Virus record (IMG/VR): IMGVR_UViG_3300044835_000040
Location: 32,001-96,000 of that record
From: a virus
Length of the DNA: 64,000 nucleotides
Direction: 5' to 3' (one strand)
Made by a program: the position numbers and the translations under genes. The notes beneath the pieces were generated by a model. That model saw only the letters and a program-made list of their open reading frames with translations, was not told the origin of the DNA and made no database searches. This document shows positions 2,649-59,119 of the stretch, in pieces; the first letter of the stretch is position 1; each line of letters opens with the position of its first letter.

Positions 2649-4835
2649 GTGGGCCGCATGTCTGCCATCAGGGAGTCCGCTGAACGCCTGACGGGCGTCA
2701 GCACGATCCCGCTGACGGAGCGCCACCGTCTCGAAGAGGCCGAGCAGGAGATGCGCGGCAAGACGCGCGAGTTGCAGGATCTCGCGTACAGCATCCTCGA
2801 CTACGCGCAGGGCGCTCCGCAGGAGATGAAGGCGCAGGAGCGCCGGAACCTCGCGCAGAAGGCGCGCGTGGTCTGGCAGCAGGATCCGCAGTACGGCGGC
2901 ACGATCAACCTGCTGAACGAGTTCGTGCTCGGCCGCGGGATCCCGAAGCCGCAGGCCGTCGACGAAGCGGCCCAGGACGAGATCGACGAGTTCTGGGCTG
3001 ACCCCGATAACCAGCGGATCCTGACGACGCACGCTGCGCAGGTCCGGCTGAACACCGACCTGTCGCTGCAGAGCAACATCTTCCCGCTCGTCTATGACGA
3101 AGGCGAAGACGGGCAGGTCAAGCTCGGGCTGCTCGATCACGACACAGTGGAAAACGCGGTCCGTGACCCCGACGCTCGACTGCGGGTCCTCTACTACTTC
3201 ACGAAGTCCTACAACCGCGAATGGGACGTGCAGAAGCACACGTACGTGGTCTCCAAAGACCGCGAAAAGCTGCGCTACTACGAGGAGTTCCGCAATCTCC
3301 AGGACGCTGAACGCGACGCTGAGGCCGGGATCCGCAAGGAGGACCTGCCGCAGATCCCGCCGGATCTGATCGGCCGCGGTCGTGTGGTGCATGTCGCGAT
3401 CAACCGAACGATGGAGCAGGCGTTCGGGATCCCGGAGATCGCCCGCACGATTCGCTGGCTGACTGCGTACAACGATCTGATGCGCGCGCGTGTCGACATG
3501 GCGAAGGCGGCGTCGTCGATCATCATGCGCAGGAAGCTGAAGGGCGGCGCTGCGGGGATGACGCAGCTCGCGTCGCAGGCGCTGCTGCAGGCGAACACGG
3601 TGCCGCAGGCGCCCGTCGACCCGACGAGCCTGGGGCAGGCGCCGAAGCCGGGGTCGATCTTGGAGGAGAACGACTGGGTCGAACATCAGCCGTTCACGCT
3701 GCCGTCGGGGTCTTCCTCGGCGATGCAGGATGCGCAGATGATCCGCTCGCAGTACTCGGTCGGCACCGGCTGGCCGCAGTCGTATCTCGGTGACCCGTCA
3801 GCGACGGATCTCGCGACGGCGACGACGCTGGAGCTTCGCGTGCTGAAGATGGTCGAAGCGCGTCAGCAGGTGCTGGAGGATCTGATCTCGGTGCTGATCA
3901 ACCACAAGATCAAGCGCGCGCTCGAAACGAAGAAAATCTCGAAGTTCAGGACGATGACGGCCGAGGAGAAGAAGCGCGCACGGATGAAGGCCGAAGCCGA
4001 ACGCGAGGCCGAAGGGCTGCCCGCGCCCGGCACGCCCGCGCTCGCTGCGCAGGTGCAACAGGCGGCCGCGAACGGGCTGCGTGCGCTGCACATGGTCGAC
4101 AGCACCGACGAGGAAGAGGACGAGGCGCCGCCGACTGGCATGGTCGCTCGCGACTTCACCTTCCAGGTCTCGATGCCTTCGCCGCTGCGTCGTGCGATGG
4201 GCGATCTGATCAACGGCGTGTCGATCATCGCGAAGACGTTCGACCCGAACGCGTCGAACATGGAGCTGTCGCGGACGCTGCTCGGGATCGCGCTCGGCGA
4301 GGGCCTGGAAGTCGAGGATCCCGGCGCCGCGGTCGAGCGGATCTTCCCGGAGGGGTATGTCGACCCGATGGTGCAGGCCGCGCAGCAGCAGGCCGCCGCG
4401 CAGACGCCGGAAATGCCTCCGGGCAGCTTCTCCCCGGAAGACCAGCCGGGCTTCGGCTCGCCCGCGTCGGCATTCGGGCGGCCGGGCACGCCGCAGGGCG
4501 AGGGCAACCCGTACAACGCGAAGCAGAAAGCACGGGACCCTTCGGAATCGATGCAGCAGGCCGCGGTCGAGGAGATCGTGCACAAGGCCGCCGACGCGCT
4601 CGCGGACAGGCGGCTGCTCGTGCTGCACGCGCGTGGCGGGGAGCGTCTGACGCCGGAGGTGATGGAGGCGGTCGTGAAGCGCGCGGTCGCTCGCCAGTCG
4701 CCGACGCCCGGCGGGCGCTTCACGGGCACGCAGATCGGCGGGTCGCGTGCGGTTATGGCCGAGGTGATGGCGGACGGGATTCTCGGCGAGGCGTTCGCGA
4801 AGGCGCTCGGGTCGCTGGAGATGACCGAGCACTGA
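2649..4835 (+). CDS. Portal protein
   Basis: About 730 aa at the head of the structural module; RNLAQKARVVWQQDP..INLLNEFVLGRG, AFGIPEI, GWPQSYLGD..ATDLATA portal-like segments; start placed at GTG 2649 (leaderless), 2631 or 2658 possible. Confidence 0.8.
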   Translation: MGRMSAIRESAERLTGVSTIPLTERHRLEEAEQEMRGKTRELQDLAYSILDYAQGAPQEMKAQERRNLAQKARVVWQQDPQYGGTINLLNEFVLGRGIPKPQAVDEAAQDEIDEFWADPDNQRILTTHAAQVRLNTDLSLQSNIFPLVYDEGEDGQVKLGLLDHDTVENAVRDPDARLRVLYYFTKSYNREWDVQKHTYVVSKDREKLRYYEEFRNLQDAERDAEAGIRKEDLPQIPPDLIGRGRVVHVAINRTMEQAFGIPEIARTIRWLTAYNDLMRARVDMAKAASSIIMRRKLKGGAAGMTQLASQALLQANTVPQAPVDPTSLGQAPKPGSILEENDWVEHQPFTLPSGSSSAMQDAQMIRSQYSVGTGWPQSYLGDPSATDLATATTLELRVLKMVEARQQVLEDLISVLINHKIKRALETKKISKFRTMTAEEKKRARMKAEAEREAEGLPAPGTPALAAQVQQAAANGLRALHMVDSTDEEEDEAPPTGMVARDFTFQVSMPSPLRRAMGDLINGVSIIAKTFDPNASNMELSRTLLGIALGEGLEVEDPGAAVERIFPEGYVDPMVQAAQQQAAAQTPEMPPGSFSPEDQPGFGSPASAFGRPGTPQGEGNPYNAKQKARDPSESMQQAAVEEIVHKAADALADRRLLVLHARGGERLTPEVMEAVVKRAVARQSPTPGGRFTGTQIGGSRAVMAEVMADGILGEAFAKALGSLEMTEH

Positions 4836-4888
4836 GCGTCCGTGGCCGCCGGTAGGCTCGCGGCCACAAGTCAACCTGGAGGTGCGAG

Positions 4889-5368
4889 ATGACGGTGCTG
4901 GTTCAGCCGGTGATGGCCGAGGAGGAGGCGCAGGCAGCGGTGACTGTCCTGCGGGCGGTCGAGCAGAGGCGGATCCTCGTGGAGCACGACGAGGAACGGA
5001 TACGTCACGCGATCGAGGCGATCGAGCACGCGCCGAGGCACGACCCGGAGAAGCCGCGTCCGGCGGCCGCGCGGCACGGTGACCCGTCCACGTCGAAGGA
5101 GGCAGCGAAGGCCGTCACGCCGCGCGCGGGCAGCCAGAGGGCGCTGCTGCTGGAGCAGTTCGTGCGCGTCGGCGATCGTGGCCTGACGGCGTACGAGGCG
5201 GGCGGGCTCGCGCTCGGCTACAAGGGCTGCTACTGGAAGCGCGTCGGCGAGCTGGAGGACGAAGGCTGGATCGTGCACGACGGTCGCGAGCGCGTCTCCC
5301 CCGAGTCGAACGCAAACCGCAGGGTGTTCGTCGCGACCCCGGCTGCGCACGCGTGGCGGGCCGCCTGA
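4889..5368 (+). CDS. Winged-HTH DNA-binding protein
   Basis: ARHGDPSTSKEAA then GLTAYE...WKRVGELEDEGWI, a pattern common in actinophage HTH proteins; RBS GGAGGTGCGAG. Confidence 0.65.
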   Translation: MTVLVQPVMAEEEAQAAVTVLRAVEQRRILVEHDEERIRHAIEAIEHAPRHDPEKPRPAAARHGDPSTSKEAAKAVTPRAGSQRALLLEQFVRVGDRGLTAYEAGGLALGYKGCYWKRVGELEDEGWIVHDGRERVSPESNANRRVFVATPAAHAWRAA

Positions 5369-5371
5369 CGA

Positions 5372-5391
5372 TAGGACGCCTGCCGTAGATT
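5372..5391 (+). promoter_or_regulatory. Late-type promoter (TAGG-N10-TAnnnT) upstream of candidate sRNA
   Basis: CTGACGATAGG-acgcctgccg-TAGATT; same architecture at 5497, 6620, 19496, 22415, 28563, 46484. Confidence 0.65.
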
Positions 5392-5397
5392 GATCTT

Positions 5398-5487
5398 GCT
5401 CGGTCCCGCCCCGAGCACCCCCCGGACCCGGCGCCCGCGCATAGGAATCTCGCACCTCCTGTCGCGCGGCGCCGGGTCCCCTTTCTG
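5398..5487 (+). ncRNA. Candidate anti-RBS small RNA (two hairpins)
   Basis: Hairpin 1 GCTCGG/CCGAGC 5398-5416; hairpin 2 perfect 12-bp stem 5424-5435/5468-5479 enclosing ATCTCGCACCTCCT (5447-5460), the reverse complement of the shared RBS motif; CCTTTCT tail; no ORF. Confidence 0.6.
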
Positions 5488-5496
5488 ACCTGACGA

Positions 5497-5516
5497 TAGG
5501 AGCTGGCGCTTAGGCT
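5497..5516 (+). promoter_or_regulatory. Late-type promoter, leaderless start of 5524
   Basis: TAGG-N10-TAGGCT, GTG 7 nt downstream. Confidence 0.65.
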
Positions 5517-5523
5517 CTATCTC

Positions 5524-6093
5524 GTGAGCGCCAGAGACGAGCAGACAGGTCCCGCCGAGCCGCTTCTGACGCTGACGCAGGGTCAGCTGGTGAAGCTGGT
5601 GAACGATGCGGCGCTCGCGGCCGCTGAGAGGATAACGTCGCGCTATCGCCTGAAGCTCGCGTTCTGGGCGTTCCTCGCGGGCGCACTGGCGTCTTCGGCG
5701 ATTGCGATTCCGGTCACGCTGATCGTGTCGCACGATGCTGCGGCGAGCGCGGCTCGGCAGGCGAACTTGAACGCGTCGGCGAACTGCCGCAACATCTCCA
5801 GTCTCGCGACGATCGAGGAAACGACCTACCGGGAATCGGCACTCCAGACACGGGCGTTTGCGCAGAAATCGAGCGACCGGTTCGGGCTAACCAAAGAGCA
5901 GTTCGCGCAGCTGATCGCGGCGAATGAACGGCGTGAACAGATCAGGGTCGCGAAGCTGCAGGCCATCGCAGCATCCGAATGCGGGGCCAAGGTACAGACT
6001 CCCGAAACGCGCATTTCTACAACTCCGAGCAAGAAGCCGGGCACCACGACGAAACCGTCCAGTTCGACGCGTACGTCCAAGCCCGGTCACTAG
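5524..6093 (+). CDS. Membrane protein with coiled coil and two Cys
   Basis: TM segment LAFWAFLAGALASSAIAIPVTLIV; T/S/K-rich tail. Confidence 0.65.
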   Translation: MSARDEQTGPAEPLLTLTQGQLVKLVNDAALAAAERITSRYRLKLAFWAFLAGALASSAIAIPVTLIVSHDAAASAARQANLNASANCRNISSLATIEETTYRESALQTRAFAQKSSDRFGLTKEQFAQLIAANERREQIRVAKLQAIAASECGAKVQTPETRISTTPSKKPGTTTKPSSSTRTSKPGH

Positions 6094-6107
6094 GGGGCTA
6101 TGCCCCG

Positions 6108-6311
6108 ATGGGGCTGCTGCTCATAGCTTTGATCGTCGTGCTCGTCGGATCGGCGTCGGTGATCGTCTCGATCGTTCATCGCCGTCGGCACGAAGCCAAA
6201 CGCCAGGAGGACCTAGCGCAACGCGCCGCGAAGACGGCGGTGGGCCTAGCCGTAGAAAGGCTGCGAGGGGATGACGACGAGTGGCATCAGCAGGCGCACA
6301 GCCACTCCTGA
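6108..6311 (+). CDS. Small single-TM membrane protein
   Basis: MGLLLIALIVVLVGSASVIVSIV followed by HRRR. Confidence 0.5.
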   Translation: MGLLLIALIVVLVGSASVIVSIVHRRRHEAKRQEDLAQRAAKTAVGLAVERLRGDDDEWHQQAHSHS

Positions 6312-6622
6312 TCGCGCTGATCGCGGCTGTCGGTACGGGGCTGCCGACGCTCGCGTACACGATCTGGCGCGGGCGGAAACTGGGGCCGAAGGAGGAAGAC
6401 GCGATCGTGACGCGCACCGCTCACGATGCCGTCGAGGCGATGGATACAGTGCTGACGGCCGCACGACGCGAGCGCGAGGAAATGCAAGACAAACTGGACG
6501 CCGCCCTACGCAAGATCGCTGAGCTGGAGCGGTGTCGTGCGGAGGATGCAGAGCACATCGAGACCCTGGAGCGTCGCGTCGAGTACCTGGAGGGTGAAGT
6601 CGAGACCCTGAAGGCGTCTTAG
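6281..6622 (+). CDS. Membrane protein with C-terminal coiled coil (holin-associated-like)
   Basis: N-terminal TM, heptad-rich C-terminus. Confidence 0.6.
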   Translation: MASAGAQPLLIALIAAVGTGLPTLAYTIWRGRKLGPKEEDAIVTRTAHDAVEAMDTVLTAARREREEMQDKLDAALRKIAELERCRAEDAEHIETLERRVEYLEGEVETLKAS

Positions 6623-6639
6623 GGCGCTGGCCGTAGACT
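6620..6639 (+). promoter_or_regulatory. Late-type promoter, leaderless start of 6646
   Basis: TAGG-gcgctggccg-TAGACT, ATG 6 nt downstream. Confidence 0.7.
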
Positions 6640-6645
6640 GGCTGG

Positions 6646-9156
6646 ATGGCTCAGCCTGTCGCCGAAGAACAGACCGTAGCCGCCCAGCAGCTCGAAGCTG
6701 AACCTCCTCCGCAGTCGCACGTCGCGGCCGTTGCTGCTGCGGCTGCCGCCGCCGCGCTCGTGACCGGCGCGCCGTCGGCGCCGACTGCGCCGTCGAAAGC
6801 CGCGGTGCGCGCTGCGACGAAGACGCTGCTCGACGGTGTGGACGCGCTGTTCCGAGCGCGCCGTCACGGGTTCGCCACGTACATCACGACGACGGCGCAG
6901 CACCAGATGCCCGGCATCGGCGCGGACAGGGTGAGCATGTTGGCCGCGGAGGAGATGCGCAACGAGGCTGAATTCCAGCGCAAGCAGCGCCAGCGTCTCG
7001 CCGAGGAGCTGCCGCAGGCGCTGCTGATCGCCGACCCGGCCAAGCGCGCTGAAGCCGTCGCGAACATCCTCGAACGCGAGAAGCGCTACATCGGCCAGCG
7101 CGAACAGGCCGCGGCACAGCGGCTGGTCGCCGCGCTCGAAGACGACCTGCTGAAGGCTGCGTCGCCGCTCGGCGCGTACTGGAAGCTCTCGCCGCTCGTG
7201 CGTGAACACTGCCTGCGGTGCCTCGCGATGGCAGGGAAGTTCTGGCCGTGGGAGGTCCTTGAAGCGCATCGGATGCCTGTGCACCCGAACTGCCAGTGCT
7301 CGAAGCTGAGCTTGGACGAGGCGGTGAACCAGGGCCTGATGACGCAGGACCAGATCCCGGCGAAGGGCGACGCCATCGCGCTCGCGACGCGACTGATGAG
7401 CGAAGCGGGGAGGCTCGAAGAGGCGCTGACGCACGAGGAGCAGCACGAGCTGGTCTCCGGCATGGAGCTGCAGGTGGTGGAGGCGTCGCTGCGCGAGATC
7501 CTGCGGTGGGGGAAGGGCACCGAGCATGGCGGCGAGTTCAAGCCGAAGTCGGGCGGCAACCCCGGCGCGGCGGTGCAGAAGGCGGCGCACCAGCTGCGTT
7601 TCGAGACGGCGCCCGCGGCGAGCGGCCGCACGGTGAAGCTGAAGGGCGAGTCGCATTGGATCCCGAAGGGCGAGGACTGGCAGCACAAGATCGGCTCGAA
7701 CGAGTACAGCTCGCCGTGGGGGACGACGCGGATCTACCGCAACGGGCAGCTGCTCTCCCAGAGCCATCACGACCTGACGGGCACGACGCCGATCGCGACG
7801 AAGCCGCACGATGGCGGCCCGTCGTTCTTCCCGGAGCTGGGCAGTCACGGGTTCGTGGGGCCGTACGTGCCGCCGCCGGAGCCGAAGATCACGCCGCGCC
7901 CGGCGCCGAAGGGTCTGGGCAAGGTGGGCATCCCGGACTACTCGGGCCGCAAGCTGGAGATCGGCAAGAGCGCGGGCGGCTCGACGGGCGCCAAATGGGC
8001 GTTCGACAAGAAAGGCAACCGGTGGCTGGTCAAGACCTACAAAGGCAACCAGGACCGTGTGGCGAGCGAGCTGCTGGCGAACGCGATCTACCGGGACCTG
8101 GGCGCGAAGGTCGCTCCGGCGGGCACCTACTACGCGAAGCTGGACGGCAAGCCGATCGTCGCGCTCACGTACCCGACGCTGGAGGGCGAGATCCGCAAAA
8201 TCAACTCGCCGAGCCGGGACCTGGGCAAGCACTACATGGCGGACGCGCTCGTCGCCAACTGGGACTTCGTGGGGCTCGCCGACGACAACGTGCTGTGGGG
8301 GCCTGACGGCAAGCCCGCTCGGCTCGATCAGGGCGGCACGTTCCAGTTCCGTGCGCAGGGCGCGCCGAAGCCCTACGGCGGCGTCCCGACTGAGGCGTGG
8401 ACGATGTTGCAGCCGAAGGGCCAGGGCTTCGGCAAGGTCGACGTGAGCGAGTCGGAAATGCGCGGGCAGGCCGCCAAGATCGCGGAGACGCTGACGCCGA
8501 CGCGCATCAAGCAGCTCGTGATGGCCGCACCGTTCGCCGACACGAAGATGGCGGGTGAGGTCGAAGCGGCGCTGAGGGAACGCGTGCAGTGGATGCGCGA
8601 CTTCAGCACGGGCGACGTGTCGCTGCCGCAGCCGTTGACTGGCGGTGAGATCGGCAAGCAGCTGCACGAGCACCAGCGGAACCTGGGGGCGTCCCCGGAG
8701 CAGCACAACGCGCTCGCGCGCTACACGAGCGACGAGGCTCTGCAGCGCCGGATGCAGGAACGGCTCCGCGCTGGGGAGAAGCTGTCGCTGGTGCAGAACG
8801 AGATGCGCAAGGGCATCGACAATCTGCTCGGGCGCGCTGCGACGCCGGAAGACCTGACGGTGTACCGGACGATGGATCCAGGGCAGCTCGGGGACCTGAG
8901 CAAGCTGGAGGGCAAGATCGTCAAAGACAAGGGCTTCGGTGGCGCCACGTCCTCGCGCGCGGCGGCGTCCGCGGCGCCGGGGATGCTGCAGATCCATGTT
9001 CCCGCCGGGTCGCGAGTCCTTCACGTGCACAGCCTCGAAGGCGTCGACAAGACCGACCCGCACAGCGAGCTGATGTTGCCTCGCGGCTCGCGGATGCGGG
9101 TGAAGGAAGTCGAGCGCCGCGGCAGCAAAACGATCGTCCACACGGTGCTCGTCTGA
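6646..9156 (+). CDS. MuF-like head morphogenesis protein fused to HipA/PI3K-like kinase and VIP2-like ADP-ribosyltransferase
   Basis: MuF CLRC...PVHPNCQC; kinase GGSTGA, WLVKT, SELLAN, NWD...DNVL, RLDQGG; ART YT, VYR, KGFGGATS, SELMLPRG. Confidence 0.8.
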   Translation: MAQPVAEEQTVAAQQLEAEPPPQSHVAAVAAAAAAAALVTGAPSAPTAPSKAAVRAATKTLLDGVDALFRARRHGFATYITTTAQHQMPGIGADRVSMLAAEEMRNEAEFQRKQRQRLAEELPQALLIADPAKRAEAVANILEREKRYIGQREQAAAQRLVAALEDDLLKAASPLGAYWKLSPLVREHCLRCLAMAGKFWPWEVLEAHRMPVHPNCQCSKLSLDEAVNQGLMTQDQIPAKGDAIALATRLMSEAGRLEEALTHEEQHELVSGMELQVVEASLREILRWGKGTEHGGEFKPKSGGNPGAAVQKAAHQLRFETAPAASGRTVKLKGESHWIPKGEDWQHKIGSNEYSSPWGTTRIYRNGQLLSQSHHDLTGTTPIATKPHDGGPSFFPELGSHGFVGPYVPPPEPKITPRPAPKGLGKVGIPDYSGRKLEIGKSAGGSTGAKWAFDKKGNRWLVKTYKGNQDRVASELLANAIYRDLGAKVAPAGTYYAKLDGKPIVALTYPTLEGEIRKINSPSRDLGKHYMADALVANWDFVGLADDNVLWGPDGKPARLDQGGTFQFRAQGAPKPYGGVPTEAWTMLQPKGQGFGKVDVSESEMRGQAAKIAETLTPTRIKQLVMAAPFADTKMAGEVEAALRERVQWMRDFSTGDVSLPQPLTGGEIGKQLHEHQRNLGASPEQHNALARYTSDEALQRRMQERLRAGEKLSLVQNEMRKGIDNLLGRAATPEDLTVYRTMDPGQLGDLSKLEGKIVKDKGFGGATSSRAAASAAPGMLQIHVPAGSRVLHVHSLEGVDKTDPHSELMLPRGSRMRVKEVERRGSKTIVHTVLV

Positions 9157-10736: not shown

Positions 10737-13700
10737 GCGAGCTAGAGACCGTCATCCCGCACGACAGTGCGGACTACCTGGAGCGCAAGCCGATCCGGTA
10801 CAGCCGCAAGACGATCGTGCTCGACGACGGCTCGCAGTACGACCTGAACGCGCCGGGGCCGTTCGACCCGGCGACGACGCTCTACCAGACGCCGCTGGAT
10901 CCGGTCCTGGAGGCCGCGGTGTTCGAGACGGAGCTGCACCCGCGCTGGCCGAAAGGCTCCGGGCTCCGCTCGGGCGAGTTCATGCGCGTCGGCGAGCACT
11001 TCAAGAGCAGCGGCGTGGAGTGGGAGATCAGCCACATCGTCAAAGGCCACATCATCGCTCACCGGTACGCGACGCAGAAATCGGACGGGCCGCAGACGAA
11101 GACGTTCGAGGTGACGATGCATCCCGGCGAGGGGCACGCGCACGTCTCGGCGATTGAAGAGTTCGTGCAGGCGCCCGTGCCGAAGGGCAGCAAGTCTGGC
11201 GGCGGCACGGTGACGATCGTCAGCCCGTACGTCGACAGCAAGACGCACGACCCGTCGATCGCGGTCCCCTCCACGTCGAAGATCACGCCGGAGGAGTGGC
11301 AGCGGTTCGGGCGGCTGGATCAGCTTGTCTACGTCGAGCACCAGGAACGCTTCGGCGAGTACAAGGACTCGACGCAGACGCAGGCGCTCGTCGACGCGGC
11401 CTACCAGAAGTTCTCGAAGGCGGCTGCCGACATGGCGCGCAGCGCCTACCAGTCGCAGTACGGATCCTCCTCCGGGCACACGCTCTCGCTCGCGGATGGT
11501 CAGATCCACGGTGCGGCGCCGGAGCTGCGCGCTGAGGCGGTCGCGCTGCTCGGCGAGCACGCCGCGGCGGTGCAGTGGGATCTAATGAACCGCACGCACT
11601 CGCCGGACATCACGCTCTCGCACAAGTCCGGGCACGACAAGAGCTGGTGGCAGCAGAAAATCACCGACAAGCTGCCGGTGTTCTCGACGCTCTCGCAGGC
11701 GTGGGCGTACAAGAAGGGCGGCTTCGGCGGGCACGGCATGGTGACGCCGATGGCGATCCGGCATCTCGTGCTCTCGACGCAGAGCGCGAAGGCGTCCTCG
11801 TCGGCGTCCTCGTTCGCTGGGGAGAAAGAGGTCGCGACGCCGTACCGGTGGATCCCGGACGAGAGGTCGCTGCCGATCTCCGACGGCGATGGCTCGCAGG
11901 TCAAAGGGCTGAACTGGCTGGCTGGCGCGACGACGGTCCCGACGGGCGGCTCGGTCGCTGAAGCGCTCGTCGACTCGATCAAGAACGGGACGTATCTCGC
12001 GCCGGTCGCGCAGCCGCCGCAGATCACGATGGATGGCGCGAGCGGCAAGACATGGATCGATCCGCCGCCGGAGGCCGCCGACCCGAAGTTCGAGGGCGTC
12101 ACGCTGCCGACGGAGTATGGCGCGAAGATCCCGCCCGCGGACCTGCCGAAGGGCGTGCCGTGGAACAAGGTTGACGCTGCTGGCAACCCGGTCGCGCAGA
12201 CCGGTGAAGAGGCTGGCGCGCACGTCGGGCAGTACTTCATGGGGCTGGCTGGGACGCTCTACTGGATCGGCCCGGACCCCGGCGCTTCGGGCGGCTACCC
12301 GTACCACATCTTCAAGATCCAGAACGGCGAATTCACGTCGGAGAACTTCGGCTACAACGCCAACCAGCCGGGCTACTACACGAACAAGTCGTTCGACATC
12401 AGCAACTGGCTGGAGGTGCAGAACAAAGCGCCGGGCTTCGAGCCGTCGCTGTGGGGCGAGTCGCTGGACGCGAAGTTCCTGGAGACGTTCCAGCCGGGCG
12501 AGAAGTTCCTGCTGAACGGTACGGCGTGGGAGGTGATGCCGGGCGGCAACGGCGTGCAGGTCCCGGTGATGGATCTCAACTCGGGGCTGAAGGGCAAGAT
12601 CAACGGCACGTACAAGACGAGCTATCTCGTCCCGAAGGGCGAGGGCAGCAAGACGATCGATATGCCGTCGCCGGAGCACCAGAAGTTCCAGGAGGGCCAG
12701 TGGGTCAAGTCGGCGTTCGGTAAGGGGCTGGTCACGAAGGTCGAAGGCACCGAGGGCGTGGGGCAGCTCGTGACGGTCGAGCATGTTGGCGGTCCGTCGT
12801 CGATGAAGGCCGCGGAGTTCCCGGCGAAGGAGCTGTCGCTGTGGCCGCAGCAGGTGGGCGTGCCTGCGCTCGGGTCGACGTTCGAGCACGAGGGCAAGAA
12901 GGCGACCGTCACGAAGATCATGGCGTCCGGCAAGATCCAGGCGAACCTGAAACCGGGCAAGCTGCAGCTCTCCCCGCAGGACTTCGCTTCAGCGCACGGC
13001 CACCACGTCGTGCCGATCAGCTCGCTGCAGATCGAGCCGCAGAAGACGAAGCTGAAGGACATGGCGCCGGGGGACCTGTTCCACGGCTCTGCGGGCAACC
13101 AGACGATCCGGCCGTATCAGGTCGTCTACAAGGGCGAGGGCAGCAAAACGGTGTACGTGCAGAACCTCGACAACGGGCACGTCGAGGAGCTGTCGCGCAA
13201 CGTCAGCTACCGCCGTCTGACGCCGGTCGCTTCGGACTCCCAGATCCCGCACGATGATCAGCCGAAGGGCGCGCCGGTCAACCTGACCGGGCCGGGCGGT
13301 GTCGGTGCGGCGTGGGACCCCGCGAAGTTCGAGCCGGGGCCGTCGATCACCGCGCAGAACATGGCGGTCGGCGACTACTTCACGGGCACCTACAACGGCA
13401 TCGTCTACCAGAAGACCGAGGATACGCCGACGCACTCGAAGGTCGTCGTCGTCGACTCTGTGGGCACTGGCACCGAGGGCCAGCTACTCGAAATAGCGCA
13501 CGGCGGGACCCCGGCTCCGTTCGAGACGCTGGTGCCGAAGGCGCAGGGACCGCCGCCGGAGATCGCGTCGCCGAGCACGTTCGTGCCGGGCGACTACAAC
13601 TTCGGCCCGAAGGTGCACATCAAGGACATGCCGCTCGGCACGATCTTCCAGACCGAAGACGGCGAGCGGCACGTGATCTCGAAAGACGACGGTGGCGACA

Positions 13701-16354
13701 AGACGCTGCTCAGCCTCGACGACGGGCACGTCATCACAGTCGACAAGACGATGCTCGATGCCTCTCCGGAGGCAGTCCACACGACGCTCGTCCCGGACAC
13801 TCCGCAGCTGAGCACGCACAGCGATGGCTGGCAGACGGGGCAAACGCAAACGTCGAGCGTCGGTCATCTCGCGATCGGTGACCACTTCAAGTCCGCTTCG
13901 CCTGGGAACAACATCTTCGAGGTCACCGGGCCACCCGACGGGGAGGGCTTCGTCCCGGCGAAGCTGGTGGCGTCGTCGATGCTCAAACCGGTGATCGGGA
14001 AGGAGCTGCAGTTCCAGAAGGAGACGGTCGTGAGCACCGCTCACCCGATCCCCGGCAGCAAACCGGCGGCGCTGGAAGTCGAGGACCATTCGGTGCTCGC
14101 GGGGCCGCAGGCGACGCCGTTCGACCCGTCGAGCTACATCGAGAGCGACAAGATCAAAATCGGCGACATGGCGCCGGGCACGGTCTTCAAGACGGACTCG
14201 GTGAAGAAAGGGTCGCAGTACTACAAGCTCTCCGACGACGGCCAGCACACGACGAACCTACTGACGGGGAAGGTGTTCCCGGCGAAGCCGAAATGGCACG
14301 GCACGGTGATGGAGAAGCAGCGCACGCCGCACGTCGAGCACGAGTACACGCATCCGCCTAACTCGGCTGACCCGCCGGAAGACAGCGCGCCGCCGGAGTT
14401 CAAGTCGGTGCCGGGCACCATCGGCGCGCTGAGCAAGGGCGATACGTTCAAGGTGCCGGAGGGCTACTTCCAGGCGGGCAAGGAGTTCAAGGTCCACGAC
14501 ACCACGCCGCAGTGGCACCCGCCTGTGGGCCACCTGTCCGGCTACCACACGATTGAGGTGTCGAGCGCGGACGGCGTGTCGTCGATGGCGACGAACCTGA
14601 AGCTCGATCCGGCGCCGGAGGATCACGCGGACGGCACGGTGCTGAAGGACAAGGCGACGAACGTCACGCCGTACGCGCAGCTGAGCAAGGGCGACACGAC
14701 GACGGTCGAGGCGCTGCGCAAGGGCGACACGTTCTCGATCGCCACGTTGCCGGGGGTCTTCGAGGTCATCAAACCGGCGGGCAGGCCGAGCGACAACCTG
14801 GACGACACGACGAGCTACGCGGACGTGCAGGCGATCGAGGGCAGCGGCGCGCACATCGAAAACTTCTCCCTGCATCCGACGGGAGCGGTGCAGCTGCAGC
14901 AGAAGGCCGAGCACGTGATGCCGGTGTCGGTGCCGCAGACGTTGATCGACTCGCTGCCGGAGGCCGTCGAAAACGGCAAGCTGCAGGGGTTCAAGCAGGC
15001 GTCGGCCGGGGCGTACATCTTCACGCCGATCGAGAAGCTGCCCGCGGGCGCCATCGCCGAAGACGCGGCGGGCAAGAAGTGGCTCGTGAAGCAGCCGGGC
15101 GCGGTGCCGGTGCTGAGCAACGGCCTGTACAACTACCGCGTCCACGACCCGTCGATCAAACTGGCCGACACGGCGCAGGCGGCGTTCGGGCCGCAGGCGC
15201 CGTTCCAGGACTGGGCGGATCCGCTCGCGACCGAACCGGGCACGATGGAGCAGAAGGCCGCGAAGGCTGATCTCGTGCCGAACGCCGCGGAGATGCCGAT
15301 CGCGGGCCTGCACATCAAGGAGGGCGACTTCCTGCAGTGGAAAGGCAACGTCGCGAAGGTGCTGCCGCCGGACAACGCGAACGTGAAGGTCGAAGACGTG
15401 GTGACCGGCAAGCACTCCTACCTGTCGCAGTTGATCGTGCCGGAGAAGATCTCGCCGGGGCACACGGTCCCGGCGCCGGAGCCCGCGCCGCCGGAGCCGG
15501 AAGTGACCGCAGAGCTACCCGCTGCGCCAACGCAGTTCACGCACGCCGTCAAGGCTACGCAGTTGGCGGTAGGCGACAAGTTCACGCTCGCACCCGGTAG
15601 CGGGCACGTCTACACGGCTGGGATGGTCGGCTCAGAGATGGCGAAATACAAGGGCGACCACGGCGAGTGGCATAGCGCGATGGGCACGGTCTACACGCAG
15701 CCGGAGGCGGCTGCCGCGACAGCACCGGCCGCCGAGCCGCCGAAGGCCGCTGTAGATCCTGCCGAGCCACAGCCGGTACACACGGTCGAGGACATGGCGC
15801 CGCACCAGGAGGTGCCGCAGATCAGCGGCACGCAGATCCCGGATGCGCTGGCGCCGTTTGGGTCGCCGAAGGGCGCTGGTGGCGTGTACTCCCACATCCC
15901 GCTGAAGGAGCTGCAGGTCGGCCAGATGTTCACCGACAAGTCGGGCGAGGACTTCCAGGTGATCGGCCACCAGGGCGACAAGACGATCTACCGCTCGATG
16001 ACGACGAGCGCGCAGTTCTCGGCGGCCAGCTCGGGCAAGGTCAAGCTCACGGCGCTGCCGCCGGAACCGGGGCCGCACCTGAAGCCGGTGATCGCGGACC
16101 TGACCGCGAAGTACGGGTCGCTGGAGAACGTGCCGAAGCTCTCGCTCGAAGACGCCGCGACGAGCACGTCGGGCACGGGCGGCAAGGCGTCCAACCCGCG
16201 GCTCGGGCATCTGAAGTACGGCCAGATGGCGATGGACGGCCAGGGCCACAAGGTCGTGTTCCTCGGCAGCTGGCTGAACCGTGCGCTGGTGCTCGACGTG
16301 GCGGGCCAGCCGAAGCTGGCGCCCGCGGGCACGCGCGTCAAACTCCTCGGCTGA
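10733..16354 (+). CDS. Giant (1873 aa) polyvalent-type protein with about 16 SH3/KOW-like repeats and possible ART-like N-terminal domain
   Basis: Recurring [LM]xxG[DT]xF units; HPR tag near N-terminus; STLS...GEKEV. Confidence 0.75.
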   Translation: MSELETVIPHDSADYLERKPIRYSRKTIVLDDGSQYDLNAPGPFDPATTLYQTPLDPVLEAAVFETELHPRWPKGSGLRSGEFMRVGEHFKSSGVEWEISHIVKGHIIAHRYATQKSDGPQTKTFEVTMHPGEGHAHVSAIEEFVQAPVPKGSKSGGGTVTIVSPYVDSKTHDPSIAVPSTSKITPEEWQRFGRLDQLVYVEHQERFGEYKDSTQTQALVDAAYQKFSKAAADMARSAYQSQYGSSSGHTLSLADGQIHGAAPELRAEAVALLGEHAAAVQWDLMNRTHSPDITLSHKSGHDKSWWQQKITDKLPVFSTLSQAWAYKKGGFGGHGMVTPMAIRHLVLSTQSAKASSSASSFAGEKEVATPYRWIPDERSLPISDGDGSQVKGLNWLAGATTVPTGGSVAEALVDSIKNGTYLAPVAQPPQITMDGASGKTWIDPPPEAADPKFEGVTLPTEYGAKIPPADLPKGVPWNKVDAAGNPVAQTGEEAGAHVGQYFMGLAGTLYWIGPDPGASGGYPYHIFKIQNGEFTSENFGYNANQPGYYTNKSFDISNWLEVQNKAPGFEPSLWGESLDAKFLETFQPGEKFLLNGTAWEVMPGGNGVQVPVMDLNSGLKGKINGTYKTSYLVPKGEGSKTIDMPSPEHQKFQEGQWVKSAFGKGLVTKVEGTEGVGQLVTVEHVGGPSSMKAAEFPAKELSLWPQQVGVPALGSTFEHEGKKATVTKIMASGKIQANLKPGKLQLSPQDFASAHGHHVVPISSLQIEPQKTKLKDMAPGDLFHGSAGNQTIRPYQVVYKGEGSKTVYVQNLDNGHVEELSRNVSYRRLTPVASDSQIPHDDQPKGAPVNLTGPGGVGAAWDPAKFEPGPSITAQNMAVGDYFTGTYNGIVYQKTEDTPTHSKVVVVDSVGTGTEGQLLEIAHGGTPAPFETLVPKAQGPPPEIASPSTFVPGDYNFGPKVHIKDMPLGTIFQTEDGERHVISKDDGGDKTLLSLDDGHVITVDKTMLDASPEAVHTTLVPDTPQLSTHSDGWQTGQTQTSSVGHLAIGDHFKSASPGNNIFEVTGPPDGEGFVPAKLVASSMLKPVIGKELQFQKETVVSTAHPIPGSKPAALEVEDHSVLAGPQATPFDPSSYIESDKIKIGDMAPGTVFKTDSVKKGSQYYKLSDDGQHTTNLLTGKVFPAKPKWHGTVMEKQRTPHVEHEYTHPPNSADPPEDSAPPEFKSVPGTIGALSKGDTFKVPEGYFQAGKEFKVHDTTPQWHPPVGHLSGYHTIEVSSADGVSSMATNLKLDPAPEDHADGTVLKDKATNVTPYAQLSKGDTTTVEALRKGDTFSIATLPGVFEVIKPAGRPSDNLDDTTSYADVQAIEGSGAHIENFSLHPTGAVQLQQKAEHVMPVSVPQTLIDSLPEAVENGKLQGFKQASAGAYIFTPIEKLPAGAIAEDAAGKKWLVKQPGAVPVLSNGLYNYRVHDPSIKLADTAQAAFGPQAPFQDWADPLATEPGTMEQKAAKADLVPNAAEMPIAGLHIKEGDFLQWKGNVAKVLPPDNANVKVEDVVTGKHSYLSQLIVPEKISPGHTVPAPEPAPPEPEVTAELPAAPTQFTHAVKATQLAVGDKFTLAPGSGHVYTAGMVGSEMAKYKGDHGEWHSAMGTVYTQPEAAAATAPAAEPPKAAVDPAEPQPVHTVEDMAPHQEVPQISGTQIPDALAPFGSPKGAGGVYSHIPLKELQVGQMFTDKSGEDFQVIGHQGDKTIYRSMTTSAQFSAASSGKVKLTALPPEPGPHLKPVIADLTAKYGSLENVPKLSLEDAATSTSGTGGKASNPRLGHLKYGQMAMDGQGHKVVFLGSWLNRALVLDVAGQPKLAPAGTRVKLLG

Positions 16355-16413
16355 CGCAGCGACCATCGGTCGCTATACTCTGTCTCGCAACCGATCAACT
16401 GGAGGTGCGAGAT
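16351..16413 (+). promoter_or_regulatory. Operator-containing promoter plus conserved leader and extended RBS
   Basis: CTGACG-17-TATACT; AGCGACC-ATC-GGTCGCT 16358-16374; GCAACCGAT 16387; GGAGGTGCGAGAT 16401. Confidence 0.75.
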
Positions 16414-16630
16414 GAAGGTAGACATGCTGATGCGGACAAAGGACCAGCCGATCCTCGTGGACGTGCAGGTGCGCGAGTCGAGCCACCGGCCGGGCAGGCT
16501 GAAGGTCTCGTTCGTGGTGCTCGACGCCGAGGGCGCCCCGCTCATAGCCAAGCGCAACAGCAAGCCGTCGACGGTGCCGCTGCCGCTGAACGACCGCGGC
16601 ATGGCTGACTTCAGGCTGGAGATGAACTAG
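16412..16630 (+). CDS. Hypothetical protein
   Basis: Strong RBS and promoter. Confidence 0.65.
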   Translation: MKVDMLMRTKDQPILVDVQVRESSHRPGRLKVSFVVLDAEGAPLIAKRNSKPSTVPLPLNDRGMADFRLEMN

Positions 16631-18178: not shown

Positions 18179-18181
18179 GGA

Positions 18182-18256
18182 TTGACAGACGCACGATCGG
18201 TGAGCTACCATCGGTCGCACTAAGCAACCGATTCACGAGGAAAGAAGGTGCGAGAT
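18182..18256 (+). promoter_or_regulatory. Sigma70-like promoter with partial operator and conserved leader
   Basis: TTGACA-18-TACCAT; ACCATCGGTCGC 18207; GCAACCGAT 18224; AGGTGCGAGAT 18246. Confidence 0.7.
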
Positions 18257-19424
18257 GAAGGCAGCAAAAGACATCGTGACGCTGGCGCAGGAGCTGAAAG
18301 ACCGCGCGGAGCGCAAGAAGGACCTGATCGTCGACGACAGGCAGATCACCGTCCTCACGACGCCGGGCGAGAAGGCGAACGAGACGGAGGTGCTGCTGCG
18401 CGAGCCCGCCGTCGGTGACGTGCTGGGGCAGACGATCGCGACGCTGGCGCCGCAGCGGATGTTCACGACGCAGCTCGGGCAGCACCTCGGCGTGCGCACG
18501 GACCTGCTCGACCGGCTCCGTGCGGAGCACCCGGTCCAGCACGATCAGCTCGTCAACGGGCTGCTCGACCGGATGCACATCGAGAAGAAGGACAAGCAGA
18601 AGCACATGGTCCGCACTTACGCCGACCCGGATGGCGGCGTCGGTGTCGCTCGCGCGCTGCTCGGCGAGGGCTACCGTCGGATCGACAACGAGGACATCGC
18701 CGAGGCCGCGCTGCCGGTGATCCTGAACGAGATCCCGACGGCTGTGGTCGACACGTGCGAGCTGACCGACACGAAGATGTACATCAAGGTGCTCGTGCCC
18801 GGAATGCAGATCAGCCTGAAGGAACTGGTCGAGCCGGGCCACCACAAGTTCCTCGACCCGAACAGCCCTGACTACGTGCAGGCGGGGTTCGTGCTGAAGA
18901 ACAGCGAGGTGGGCGGCGGTGCGCTCTCGATCGAGCACATGCTGTTCCGGCTGGTCTGCCTGAACGGCCTGATCCGCGGCAAGGCACTCTCGCGTCGTCA
19001 CGTCGGTCGCCGGAACGTCGAGGTGGCCGAGGACTACACGATCTACAGCACCGAGACCGTCGAAGCTGACGACAAGGCGCTGATGATGAAGGTCCAGGAC
19101 GCGGTGCGCCACACGGTCAACGAGGAGAAGTTCCGTGAGATCGCACAGCAGTTCGCGAGCACGGTGGCGACCGTCGAGATCGAGCAGCCGATCGAGCGGA
19201 TGCAGGTGCTGGCCCCGAAGATCGGCCTGACCCTCGGCGAGGGTCAGAGCGTCCTGGAGAAGCTGCTTGCGGGCGGCAACAAGACGCAGTTCGGGCTGAT
19301 CAACGCGATCACCGCCACGGCGCAGACGGTCGAGTCCTACGACCGCAGCGTCGAGCTGGAGGAGATCGGCGCGCAGGTGATGGACCTGAGTGGTGCCGAG
19401 TGGGGGGCGCTGGTCACCGCGTAG
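18255..19424 (+). CDS. DUF932-family protein
   Basis: RALLGEGYRRIDN and LKNSEVGGGA...FRLVCLNG signatures. Confidence 0.8.
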   Translation: MKAAKDIVTLAQELKDRAERKKDLIVDDRQITVLTTPGEKANETEVLLREPAVGDVLGQTIATLAPQRMFTTQLGQHLGVRTDLLDRLRAEHPVQHDQLVNGLLDRMHIEKKDKQKHMVRTYADPDGGVGVARALLGEGYRRIDNEDIAEAALPVILNEIPTAVVDTCELTDTKMYIKVLVPGMQISLKELVEPGHHKFLDPNSPDYVQAGFVLKNSEVGGGALSIEHMLFRLVCLNGLIRGKALSRRHVGRRNVEVAEDYTIYSTETVEADDKALMMKVQDAVRHTVNEEKFREIAQQFASTVATVEIEQPIERMQVLAPKIGLTLGEGQSVLEKLLAGGNKTQFGLINAITATAQTVESYDRSVELEEIGAQVMDLSGAEWGALVTA

Positions 19425-52336: not shown

Positions 52337-52400
52337 GTGTTCGAGCACGTCCGGTGGCCGCGCTAGTTTCACCGCTACTGCGACTACTGGAGGTGCGAGA

Positions 52401-53657
52401 ATGGCGGGTGTGACGGAGCAGCAGGAGCCTGACGTGGTGGCCGGGGAGGACTCGGCCGAGGAGCAGGCGAGGGTGCGTGCGCAGCAGGCGGCGGGGCAGC
52501 TGATGGCGCCGGGCGATGCGACGCTCCCCGCGCGTCATCGCTACGCGGCGGCGCAGGTGCAGGTGATCAAGGGCACGGTCGCCAAGAAGCTGACGGACAT
52601 CGAGCTGGCGTGGTTCCTGGAGGTTGCGGCCCGCTACAGGCTGGACCCGCTGCTGAAGGAGATCTTCGCGGCGAAGTTCGAGGGCGACAGCGGACCCGTG
52701 ACGATCTTCGCTGGTCGTGATGGGCTGCTGAAGGCGGCTCGCGACACGGGGCGCTTCGTGCGGATGGAATCGCACACGGTCTGCGAGAAAGACGTGTTCC
52801 GCAAGGTCGTCGACACGGCCGCGTCGATCGAGGAGGACCGGGAGGTCCTGACGATCCACCACGAGACGAAAGGGATGGGCTCGGCCGCGCGCGGGCCTAT
52901 CGTCGGCGCGTATGCGCTGGTGTGGACGACCAGCTCGCCGCACCCGTGGTACTCGGAGGCGACGTGGGAGGAGTACGGCCAGCGCAAGCAGGAGACGAAC
53001 AGCAAGAAGGACACGCTTTGGACGCTTGACAGCTCGAAGGGGTTCCCGTCGGCGATGATGGTGAAGGTGCCGGAGTCCTACACGCTGCGCAAGGCGTGCG
53101 GGCTGACGGGGCTGGTTGGCGAAGACGAGATCCGCCAGCAGCTCGACGAGGAGCCGGAGCGTCCGGCGCTGTCGGGTAGCGGCGCGACGCCGACGGTCGA
53201 GTACCCGGAGGACGAGCGCGGCGAACGGCTGAAGGCGCTGGTCGGGCGCGCGAACGAGCTGGTGCCGGGGTCGTGGCGTGACGCGAAGGTCGCGGTCGAG
53301 CTGGGCGTCGGTGACGAGGCCGCGATCGAAGCGCTGATCGGCAAGGTGGGACGATTTATCGCGACGCGCTCGCCGAGCGACCCGTTGCTGATGGTCGCGG
53401 CCACCGCGGAGGACGAGCCGGAGGCCGAGGAGCCGCTGCCGCACGTGGAGTGGGACGCTGACGCGTACCGCAACGTGCAGCTCGCGGTCGCGAACATCGA
53501 CGAGCGCCTGGAGGACCCGGAGCTGACTGAGCAGGCGCGTGTGGTGGTCGAAGGCGAACGCGCTGAGGGCGGCCGTCTGCTGCTCGCGTACGAGGCCGTG
53601 ATGCCGGAGGCCGCTGAGCCGGTCGAGGAGCAGGTCGACGGCCCGACTGAGCTGTAG
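52401..53657 (+). CDS. RecT/Bet-like single-strand annealing protein
   Basis: LDPLLKEIF, GRDGLLKAA, IVGAYA, PSAMMVKVPESYTLRKA. Confidence 0.8.
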   Translation: MAGVTEQQEPDVVAGEDSAEEQARVRAQQAAGQLMAPGDATLPARHRYAAAQVQVIKGTVAKKLTDIELAWFLEVAARYRLDPLLKEIFAAKFEGDSGPVTIFAGRDGLLKAARDTGRFVRMESHTVCEKDVFRKVVDTAASIEEDREVLTIHHETKGMGSAARGPIVGAYALVWTTSSPHPWYSEATWEEYGQRKQETNSKKDTLWTLDSSKGFPSAMMVKVPESYTLRKACGLTGLVGEDEIRQQLDEEPERPALSGSGATPTVEYPEDERGERLKALVGRANELVPGSWRDAKVAVELGVGDEAAIEALIGKVGRFIATRSPSDPLLMVAATAEDEPEAEEPLPHVEWDADAYRNVQLAVANIDERLEDPELTEQARVVVEGERAEGGRLLLAYEAVMPEAAEPVEEQVDGPTEL

Positions 53658-56167: not shown

Positions 56168-56481
56168 GCGAACTGCTGAAGCGGGTGCCGGTCATCTCGC
56201 CGTCGATCCCGTCGCAGCTGTGGATGGTGTTCATGGAAGCCGTCTGCAAGCGCTACGGGCACAACTGGCGGCCGTACGGCAAACCGCTGCGGTTCGGTCA
56301 CCGCGAGTACTGCGTCCGGTGCCTACGGCAAGCTGTCGAGCTGGCGGACGGGAGAGTCGAATGCTCCAAGGCTGACGTGATGGCCGCGGATCCGGATCTC
56401 GCGGAGGCTCTGTATCAGGCGCGGTGGGGCGAACTGCCTCGGCAGCGGCTGACGAGAGGCGAATGGCCGGTAGCCGACTAG
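56164..56481 (+). CDS. Hypothetical protein with zinc-finger-like motif
   Basis: CKRYGHNW...YCVRC. Confidence 0.55.
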   Translation: MSELLKRVPVISPSIPSQLWMVFMEAVCKRYGHNWRPYGKPLRFGHREYCVRCLRQAVELADGRVECSKADVMAADPDLAEALYQARWGELPRQRLTRGEWPVAD

Positions 56482-56491
56482 GAGGTGCGAG

Positions 56492-58446: not shown

Positions 58447-58573
58447 GCAGGAACGTCCGACCCGTCTGCAGAAATAGTGCCGGTGAGTGCGGGGTCGATG
58501 ACTCCGTGGCGGGACTCCCGATGGCACTATCTCGCGGCGTCCCGCCGTCTATGCAACCGAAAGGCAGGCGCGC

Positions 58574-59119
58574 ATGAGCGCAGCGACACAGGAGGCGGGT
58601 ATGGCAGACGCGATGACGGACGAGGAGCGAGCGGCAGCAGAGGCCGAGGCCGCAGCGAACGGCAACGGCAGCGACGGCGAGGCCGCGGGCGGTGAGCGGC
58701 AGACGCTGGAGCAGCTGGCCGCGGATGACCCGGACGCCGACGACGAGACCGAGCAGTTCACGCTGTTCGGCAGCCAGTCGAAGATCAACAGCAAAGTCGG
58801 CGGGCCGAAGGTCACGGCGTCCGCGACGCGCTTCACCGCGAAACGCCAGCCGATCCCCGGCCAGTTCGAGCTGGGCGAGACGGTCCGCGGCACGTGGGTC
58901 GGTCGTGTGAAGGATCTGCAGTTCCCGTCGAAGAAGAACAGCGACGGCAGCTACGAGGTGACCCGTGTGCATGTCGTGGAGCTGGAGCGGATCTCGCAGG
59001 CCGAGGACGTGCCGGAGGAGTTCGCGATCCTCGACGGTCGCGGCCGTGCTGCTGAGGACGGCGAGCTGGCGAAAGCTCTCGCTCGGGTCAAGGAGCTGGA
59101 AGCTCTGCTCGAAGCGTAG
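58574..59119 (+). CDS. Hypothetical acidic protein
   Basis: Codon bias; alternative start 58601 after AGGAGG. Confidence 0.6.
   Translation: MSAATQEAGMADAMTDEERAAAEAEAAANGNGSDGEAAGGERQTLEQLAADDPDADDETEQFTLFGSQSKINSKVGGPKVTASATRFTAKRQPIPGQFELGETVRGTWVGRVKDLQFPSKKNSDGSYEVTRVHVVELERISQAEDVPEEFAILDGRGRAAEDGELAKALARVKELEALLEA

Follow-up and report, generated by a model that had tools for sequence, protein, structure and literature searches.

A candidate phage small RNA with a hairpin loop complementary to a repeated start motif

The DNA analyzed here, referred to as the window, comprises 64,000 nucleotides (nt) and comes from a single virus contig of 129,070 bp (IMG/VR record IMGVR_UViG_3300044835_000040), of which it makes up bases 32001-96000. 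At positions 5398 to 5487 of the window, behind a promoter-like element, lies a predicted RNA unit of two hairpins. The apex of the second hairpin is complementary to a 14-nt motif that is repeated through the genome at the ribosome-binding site (RBS) and start codon of phage genes. The structure of the unit, its conservation, the complementarity of its loop to the motif, the co-variation of loop and motif across lineages and the class of its promoter are observed directly in the sequences compared. The unit is best read as a small noncoding phage RNA that would act in trans to shut off the motif-bearing genes late in infection. The phage genome (129 kb) has a G+C content of 68%, with nearly all coding potential on the + strand, and the sole sequencing run listed as containing the contig is labeled as a soil metagenome.

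The two-hairpin unit and the start motif

A gap of 155 nt separates gene 4889-5368 from gene 5524-6093. The features in and around it are given below in window coordinates, L001 and L044 being two close relatives.

5372-5391, + strand: promoter-like element P1, TAGGA-N9-TAGATT, a consensus-level match whose -10 box ends 7 nt 5' of hairpin 1
5398-5416, + strand: hairpin 1, from folding, with a 6-bp stem and a 7-nt loop, TCCCGCC, that is kept in L001 and L044
5424-5479, + strand: hairpin 2, from folding, with a perfect 12-bp base stem, inner stems and an apical loop
5447-5460, + strand: anti-motif ATCTCGCACCTCCT, the complement of AGGAGGTGCGAGAT, at the apex of hairpin 2
5480-5487, + strand: pyrimidine tail CCTTTCTG (CCTTTCT) after hairpin 2, a candidate 3' region judged from the sequence
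5497-5526, + strand: second promoter copy P2, TAGGA-N9-TAGGCT, with the leaderless GTG (5524) of gene 5524-6093

The coordinates, sequence and two-hairpin fold given in a preliminary description of this DNA were confirmed with small corrections, as was its placement of the unit between two promoter-like elements of the same class, P1 (5372) and P2 (5497). The + strand RNA from 5398 to 5487 folds with a minimum free energy of -54.6 kcal/mol (z = -6.8), and 0 of 200 shuffled sequences were as stable. The base stem of hairpin 2 encloses a loop region of 32 nt, in which an upper stem pairs 5457-5462 with 5441-5446 below a 10-nt apical loop, ATCTCGCACC (RNA AUCUCGCACC), at 5447-5456. A search of Rfam 15, including 6C, with positions 4800-6200 and E values of up to 10 returned only two chance snoRNA matches (E 2.5 and 4.7). 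The unit had also been described as free of open reading frames (ORFs). This was true in part: a 32-codon TTG frame (5390-5488) and minus-strand shadow frames do overlap it, but none of these frames is conserved in L001 or L044, and no ORF is common to the three sequences.

The start motif, AGGAGGTGCGAGAT (also written AGGAGGTGCGAGATG; as RNA, AGGAGGUGCGAGAUG), is a 14-mer occupying the position of the RBS and start codon. With up to two mismatches allowed, it was found 18 times on the + strand of the genome and once on the - strand, the minus-strand copy being the apex of hairpin 2, and 17 of the 18 plus-strand copies ran directly into ATG or GTG. A 13-mer version with at most one mismatch gave 16 copies on the + strand and 1 on the - strand, and from base composition an exact 14-mer is expected 1.5e-4 times on a given strand. 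In the window, exact matches were located at 56480 on the plus strand and at 5447-5460 on the minus strand, with further copies at one mismatch (4877, 16400 and 18243), two mismatches (52388) and three mismatches (17951), while the site at 63863 matched 10 nt of the motif. The total of 13 copies in the window at up to three mismatches, against 7.6 expected, was reached by 2 of 100 shuffles and is therefore unremarkable; the signal resides in the strict copies and the strand bias and not in the loose window count.

The hairpin itself stood out when the genome was surveyed for loops of this kind. Of the 44 hairpins whose stem is perfect over 9 bp or more, the window loop ranked first with 14 complementary sites, followed by one with 8. 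Pairing of the apex at -25 kcal/mol or below was predicted at 13 of the 134 called initiation regions; 300 shuffled apices reached this energy at 0.08 regions on average and never at more than 2. The unit thus presents what is expected of a base-pairing small RNA (sRNA), namely an accessible seed complementary to initiation regions, here a 10-nt loop within a 14-nt complement to 17 starts. The claim that the apex complements a motif shared by the RBS and start of many phage genes holds at these 17 start sites.

P1 fits a second promoter class, TAG[GA][AG]-N9-TANNNT, which was found 11 times on the + strand and 0 times on the - strand of the genome (mean of 50 shuffles, 1.4). Behind eight of the 11 copies, at a distance of 6 to 8 nt, stands the start codon of an ORF with 40 or more codons; these eight therefore head leaderless genes. 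Those behind the class include the MuF-like gene 6646 and the genes at 19522, 22442, 46512 and 5524, mostly of the virion module, which agrees with the leaderless heads of late operons proposed in the preliminary description. P1 is a member of the class with no start codon behind it; its assignment as the unit's own promoter is by consensus match, and it is kept in the relatives, while a scan for the sigma-70 promoter consensus gave no match at the predicted RNA unit. The positions of the class are as follows.

Window 5372, 5497, 6620, 19496, 22415, 28563, 46484 and 62249, and genome 6707, 24987 and 98972, + strand: copies of the second promoter class

The leaderless gene 6646-9156, behind one of these class-2 promoters, encodes a MuF-like protein of 836 amino acids with a C-terminal ADP-ribosyltransferase domain (Pfam ADPrib_exo_Tox, E = 2.3e-10).

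Loop and motif in relatives and in cluster K phages

The close clade consists of three sequences: the window, L001 and L044. L001 lies on an IMG/VR contig (genome G001) whose portal and neighboring gene are 77% and 44% identical in amino acid sequence to those of the window, and L044 is a 4.3-kb metagenome contig with corresponding identities of 56% and 32%. Both keep the layout TAGNN-N9-TAGNNT, 7 to 8 nt, hairpin 1 (loop UCCCGCC) and hairpin 2, followed by a second -10 box, 7 nt and a leaderless GTG. Hairpin 1 has the same loop on different stems, and the apex of hairpin 2 retains CGCACCTCC (RNA CGCACCUCC), while the base stems of hairpin 2 are unrelated in sequence yet perfect, with 12 bp in the window, 14 in L001 and 16 in L044. 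Within the upper stem, GGRA/UCCY, one pair is A-U in the window, G-C in L001 and G.U in L044, and the G.U pair fits only the + strand. Compensatory change is thus seen, as unrelated perfect stems and a changing upper pair, in three homologues, a number too small for a formal covariation statistic; the unrelated stems could not be aligned by MAFFT. The z-scores of the folds for the window, L001 and L044 were -6.8, -5.3 and -4.5 on the + strand and -4.3, -4.6 and -2.2 on the - strand. In G001, the 13-mer occurred six times in forward and once in reverse orientation, and the reverse copy was the hairpin loop.

The search for relatives covered several collections. Positions 4800-6200 gave no match in a nucleotide search of the phage collection, and the portal compared with that collection by tblastn gave only matches below 24% identity. 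The portal protein search found 37 relatives, including 14 whose identity was 55% or higher; the portal relative P0003, used as a query, had no match among viral contigs, and nothing was found in a first metagenome scan. The pattern TCCCGCC-N25-55-CGCACCTCC occurred in at least 119 stretches, but with hairpins in none of the matches listed, and these were rejected as chance hits, whereas a tighter pattern returned the contig of L001 plus two chance hits. L065 was considered as a close relative and rejected. Separately, the commonest 11-mers of the window's genome (G000) and of G001, GGCGCGACGGG / GGCGCGACCGG, present in 17 to 20 copies on one strand, are probably coding repeats of Gly-Ala-Thr type.

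More distant phages use other motifs. In ten large relatives (portal identity 36-48%), which lack the window motif, five gave 0 matches and three of the other five gave one single-mismatch hit each. Six of the ten were analyzed whole (G002, G003, G004, G005, G008 and G011). G003, G004 and G005 each contain 26 to 32 copies of CCGACCGAGGAG (motif CCCGACCGAGGAG) just 5' of start codons. Reverse copies in these three genomes are RBSs of minus-strand genes, with the exception of one in G003, one in G004 and two in G005; of the two in G005, one is exact and one carries a mismatch, and the exact one is in a hairpin loop. Each of the three genomes thereby has an exact non-genic reverse copy, which is contained in the 27-nt hairpin loop CUCCUCGGUCGGGA (CTCCTCGGTCGGGA). 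The hairpin lies 3' of the same tail-fiber-like gene, is preceded by TGTATCCT and 6 to 7 nt, and has a strong U-tract terminator behind it. One stem pair changes from A-U to G-C between G004 and G005, and the loop ranks first of 66 hairpins in G004 and of 46 in G005, with 28 and 29 complementary sites, respectively. At L256, L259 and L265 the loop is kept while the stems, the -10 box and the terminator are entirely different, and MAFFT could not align two subgroups of this second (G003-type) family. Because the loops of G003, G004 and G005 complement their own, different motif, the loop tracks the motif of each genome. The preliminary description had proposed looking for exactly this co-variation, and it was found, with exact complements in these three genomes; cluster K1 phages, described below, also have a loop complementary to their own motif. 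G002 and G008 have no dominant start motif, and no motif-complementary hairpin loop was found in them.

Two further arrangements were noted among these relatives. In G004 (L197-L203; for example, contig 28418, 49723, 91784 and 97688), TAGGTG and a short hairpin whose loop is of GAGA type stand immediately 5' of many motif copies, an arrangement that recalls the "extended" start-associated sequences (SAS) of cluster K. On the minus strand of G011:C1, at about 68720, a typical G011 promoter-leader is followed by a near-copy of the start motif and a hairpin with no ORF, and this is possibly an RNA carrying the sense motif.

In cluster K mycobacteriophages, a 13-bp SAS, GGGATAGGAGCCC, and a lone reverse site were noted by Pope et al. 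(2011; PMC3203893), and as late as 2024 and 2025 the role of SAS is described in print as unknown. In the right 40.8 kb of Anaya, SAS occurred 16 times in forward and once in reverse orientation (shuffle mean, 0.73). A gap of 385 nt separates gp96 from gp97; a long hairpin there is followed by a further one, and the reverse copy sits within the 10-nt apical loop of the latter. A 121-nt region of Anaya matched 145 cluster K records, of which 11 loci were examined, and the anti-SAS loop was present in 6 of the 11. Across eight sequences, the two-hairpin structure of cluster K1 had 96.0% of cells paired, against 35 to 46% when slid. Both partners had changed in six pairs, and the covariation score exceeded that of every one of 500 shuffles. 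At several pairs, 4 to 6 of the 8 sequences had G.U, and these fit only the + strand, because the other strand would give A.C. In Adephagia the hairpin lies in the gap between genes 92 and 93 (58447-58878), where late transcription is reported to start (PMC11373665). The Adephagia hairpin is thus independent support for an RNA against the start motif that is made with late transcripts, although in cluster K the hairpin may act as a leader instead of a free sRNA.

In some records, including Validus gp103 (L269 92-415) and Amgine gp95 (L274 85-412), the two-hairpin gap of cluster K is annotated as a hypothetical protein, whereas in others it is not; the structure suggests that these calls are doubtful. 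In the cluster EF phage AnnaSerena, at about 11321-11350, GTCCTT stands a few bases 5' of the RBS GAAAGGAC ahead of gene 20 and could mask that RBS in cis.

Predicted targets, proposed action and alternatives

The predicted targets in the window are listed by the coordinates of the motif, followed by the promoter-operator-leader cassette in which many copies stand.

4877-4891, + strand: gene 4889-5368, directly upstream of the unit; 13 of 14 nt, duplex -28.6 kcal/mol; PHROG of unknown function
16400-16414, + strand: gene 16412-16630, behind a complete promoter-operator-leader cassette
18243-18257, + strand: DUF932 gene 18255-19424
52388-52403, + strand: RecT-family gene 52401-53657
56480-56494, + strand: exact 14 nt; gene 56492-58246, with a MarR-type helix-turn-helix
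63850-63875, + strand: weaker target, 10 nt; also the best target of the second antisense RNA described below
16340-16414, 18180-18257 and others in the window; genome 1869, 28282, 48402, 50245, 101793, 112592 and 122966: copies of the cassette

Protein matches upheld the earlier assignments of gene 52401 as RecT-like and of gene 18255 as DUF932. The HerA-like ATPase proposed at 56492 fared less well: the HerA/DUF87 match of gene 56492-58246 was weak and below threshold, and a MarR-type helix-turn-helix was found. The capsid and tail genes at 23840, 24292, 25432 and 30640 use GAGAGGA-type RBSs, as had been stated. In the cassette, a TTGACA-like box and a TATACT-like box enclose the palindrome GCGACC-N3-GGTCGC, likely an operator, and are followed by the leader GCAACCGAT and then GGAGGTGCGAGATG. 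Since many motif copies end this shared promoter-leader module, the conservation of the spacer between the Shine-Dalgarno sequence (SD) and ATG, to which the preliminary description had drawn attention, is present but partly accounted for by the cassette. The copies at 4877, 52388 and 56480 stand without it.

The same genome (G000:C1) contains a second candidate antisense unit at 98223-98352, equivalent to window 66223-66352 and just past the end of the window. It comprises TTGCGG-17-TATAGT, two hairpins and a GCAA-loop terminator with a U-tract, and it exposes a single-stranded 25-mer complementary to the whole conserved leader (GCAACCGAT...GGAGGTGCG). The leader has 13 sense copies on the + strand, and its complement occurs once on that strand, within this unit. 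No homologue of the second unit was seen in G001.

In the proposed action of the first unit, transcription from the virion-gene-type promoter at 5372-5391 would yield an RNA with hairpin 1 at its start and hairpin 2 after it. In the apical loop, CUCGCACC would be exposed, with the adjoining CCUCCU held in the 4- to 6-bp upper stem, and CUCGCACC complements GGUGCGAG, the phage-specific part of the motif made up of the end of the SD and the spacer. Pairing could then be nucleated with GGUGCGAG of AGGAGGUGCGAGAUG on about 17 phage mRNAs and spread over the SD and AU(G) to 14 bp, so that the 30S subunit would be excluded. A duplex over the SD and start codon blocks initiation in known base-pairing sRNAs. 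With the generic CCUCC locked in the upper stem and the spacer complement exposed, such an RNA would be expected to prefer the phage's own motif over ordinary SDs. The motif genes are non-structural and the virion genes are leaderless or of the GAGAGGA type; hence, the RNA would lower the former as the latter come on. The ends of the transcript, its action in trans and the direction and timing of its effect are what we infer from these features. In view of the promoter class, the Adephagia data and the sRNA precedent, late shut-off of the motif genes in trans by a small noncoding phage RNA is the best reading, with a probability of roughly 0.55.

The reading first put forward in the preliminary description is therefore supported in part, by a conserved structured unit, a complementary loop, the promoter class and the comparison among relatives, and a number of observations weigh against it. 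The scan of 4000-7000 for U-tract terminators found 0 sites, the tail after hairpin 2 being CCUUUCU, and L001 and L044 each have a different 3' tail; lacking a canonical terminator and a conserved tail, the RNA might read on past hairpin 2. Hairpin 1 is without an evident target, as the complement of its loop, GGCGGGA, was not enriched at gene starts, and the CCUCC part of the apex of hairpin 2 is sequestered in the upper stem. At -18 kcal/mol, RNAduplex, whose energies are generous in G+C-rich RNA, called 31 of the 134 initiation regions against a shuffled-apex mean of 7.5, and looser cut-offs were not discriminating. There are only six motif copies in G001, and the L044 loop, CCCGCACC, pairs imperfectly with the sole motif copy on its 4.3-kb contig. 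Several motif genes (4889; window -3708 and -553) sit within the virion-gene region. In G003, G004 and G005 the -10 box of the RNA resembles the -10 box of its targets, so that "late" timing is not general.

Some lineages, moreover, keep a start motif with no hairpin to match. G011 has 22 copies of CCGACCAAGGAG, and no complementary hairpin loop was found in it. AnnaSerena (MH271292, cluster EF, SAS GGGAAAGGACCCC) has 10 sense copies at up to one mismatch and 0 antisense copies at up to two, and its five antisense hits at three mismatches look like chance. The anti-SAS loop is absent from 5 of the 11 cluster K loci (Amohnition, which has a related C-rich loop, Amgine, SirPhilip, Pixie and Yuna), and no such hairpin was seen in the SAS-bearing phages Pixie (at its locus) and TM4 (Pope 2011). 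A motif kept without a complementary hairpin, which the preliminary description had itself named as telling against its proposal, is thus the state of some lineages, namely G011, AnnaSerena, Pixie and TM4. It follows from these four motif-rich cases that the motif has a role independent of the RNA.

Among other explanations, the one with the most to recommend it, although with only a small chance of being right, is that the hairpin acts in cis, as leader or attenuator within a longer late transcript. By pairing with the loop, abundant motif-bearing mRNAs would open or reshape hairpin 2 and so time read-through into the virion genes, or the leader would sponge these messages. The K1 hairpin fits such a role: it stands some 170 nt 5' of the first late gene, within the gap from which late transcription sets out, and has no terminator behind it. 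So does hairpin 2 of the window, which has no U-tract and stands between upstream genes and virion genes. In the window, however, P2 and a leaderless GTG follow hairpin 2 directly, and a read-through RNA would therefore bury an SD-less start; in G003, G004 and G005 a strong terminator and, past it, convergent genes come after the hairpin, which leaves nothing downstream to be controlled. It is unlikely that hairpin 2 is an ordinary factor-independent terminator or insulator whose loop is a relic of an inverted RBS cassette or is selected apart from pairing. A long G+C-rich stem directly after a gene, stable on both strands, would suit a terminator, and terminators also show covariation in their stems. 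The loops, however, are 23 to 32 nt long and keep a conserved core while the stems turn over, the relation of loop to motif recurs with other motifs in two further lineages, and a promoter-like element precedes hairpin 1 by 7 nt in all three close relatives, where the whole unit with hairpin 1 is conserved. Nor does hairpin 2 have the marks of an intrinsic terminator, given a loop region of 32 nt, a tail of CCUUUCU and 0 scan sites.

The RNA may pair as proposed and yet have a different effect, acting positively or on stability, by protecting short 5' leaders from 5'-end-dependent decay or directing processing, or it may target host SDs as a form of shut-off; this too has a low probability, comparable to that of the terminator. 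CACCUCCU, being a copy of the anti-SD core, would be able to pair with every strong SD, and by itself it reaches -12 kcal/mol or below on 20 of the 134 phage initiation regions, and the G004 motif lies at the extreme 5' end of short leaders. Against a general or positive effect, the exposed loop is the phage-specific spacer complement, the generic CCUCC part being held in the upper stem, and the duplex would cover the SD and start codon, which blocks initiation in known cases. A site acting at the level of DNA, where a protein binds the motif in either orientation and the inverted copy is one more site or a cruciform, is quite improbable. The motif does belong to a promoter-operator-leader cassette, and Pope et al. 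(PMC3203893) favored the view that a protein binds extended SAS in cluster K; nevertheless, the strand bias is 18 to 1, the lone inverted copy is always in a hairpin loop, and the G.U pairs of cluster K fit one strand only, as RNA. Least probable of all is that the minus-strand copy serves as the RBS of a small minus-strand gene. There, the motif is followed by ATT CCT ATG and a 70-codon frame with a third-position G+C content (GC3) of 0.87, but this frame overlaps the 3' end of gene 4889-5368 in antisense orientation and is absent from L001 and L044, in a genome otherwise read on the + strand.

Comparison with known systems

The window system resembles SAS as described for cluster K (PMC3203893) and cluster EF (PMC7302621) in having an asymmetric motif of 13 to 14 nt at the RBS position of many non-structural genes. 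As in SAS, the motif is conserved beyond the part that pairs with 16S rRNA, has one orientation (18 copies on the + strand against 1 on the - strand, with 17 of the 18 on starts) and often follows a promoter with an inverted repeat. It differs from cluster K SAS in that its motif is AGGAGGTGCGAGAT and not GGGATAGGAGCCC, and the window has no nucleotide match to the phage collection and a portal without a close match there. Judged by sequence, the window system is an analogue and not a member of the cluster K SAS systems. In the literature searched, with the ZoeJ RNA-seq paper and supplementary lists of reverse sites outside its scope, the available text gave no role for SAS and no link between the reverse site and an RNA.

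More broadly, and tentatively, with odds somewhat short of even, actinobacteriophages may use their start motifs as handles for switching translation by means of RNA, in several unrelated lineages whose loop and motif co-evolve as a private anti-SD code. The lineages would be the clade of the window, that of G003, G004 and G005, and cluster K1, and a small RNA or the leader of a late transcript may silence or retime the motif genes in each. If true, this would account for the SAS puzzle of 2011 and its unexplained single reverse site, and it gives a testable mechanism for cluster K SAS, whose role was called unknown from 2011 to 2025, in phages that are engineerable, are used in therapy and have RNA-seq data on hand. 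It also provides a rule for genomic searches, a lone reverse copy of a repeated start motif sitting in a hairpin loop, and suggests a portable way of turning a set of genes off jointly. The class of mechanism is known; its multi-gene, motif-tracking, virus-encoded form and the link to SAS were not found in the literature searched.

Antisense RNAs that mask an RBS are well known, and several systems offer points of comparison. The T4 endoribonuclease RegB is a phage device that switches off early messages through the SD; it is a protein nuclease cutting GGAG, whereas the candidate in the window is an antisense RNA. The sRNAs 6C of actinobacteria and RsaE/RoxS of Firmicutes use C-rich loops to pair with the G-rich SDs of several mRNAs, with no obvious need for Hfq. 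These are cellular RNAs, whereas the predicted RNA of the window is viral and has a complementarity of 14 nt that includes the spacer and start codon. In the c4 antisense RNA of P1 and P7 and the sar RNA of P22, loops of a structured phage RNA reportedly block the RBS of a phage message. The c4 and sar RNAs act on one adjacent operon, whereas the window loop matches about 17 dispersed genes through a motif that they share.

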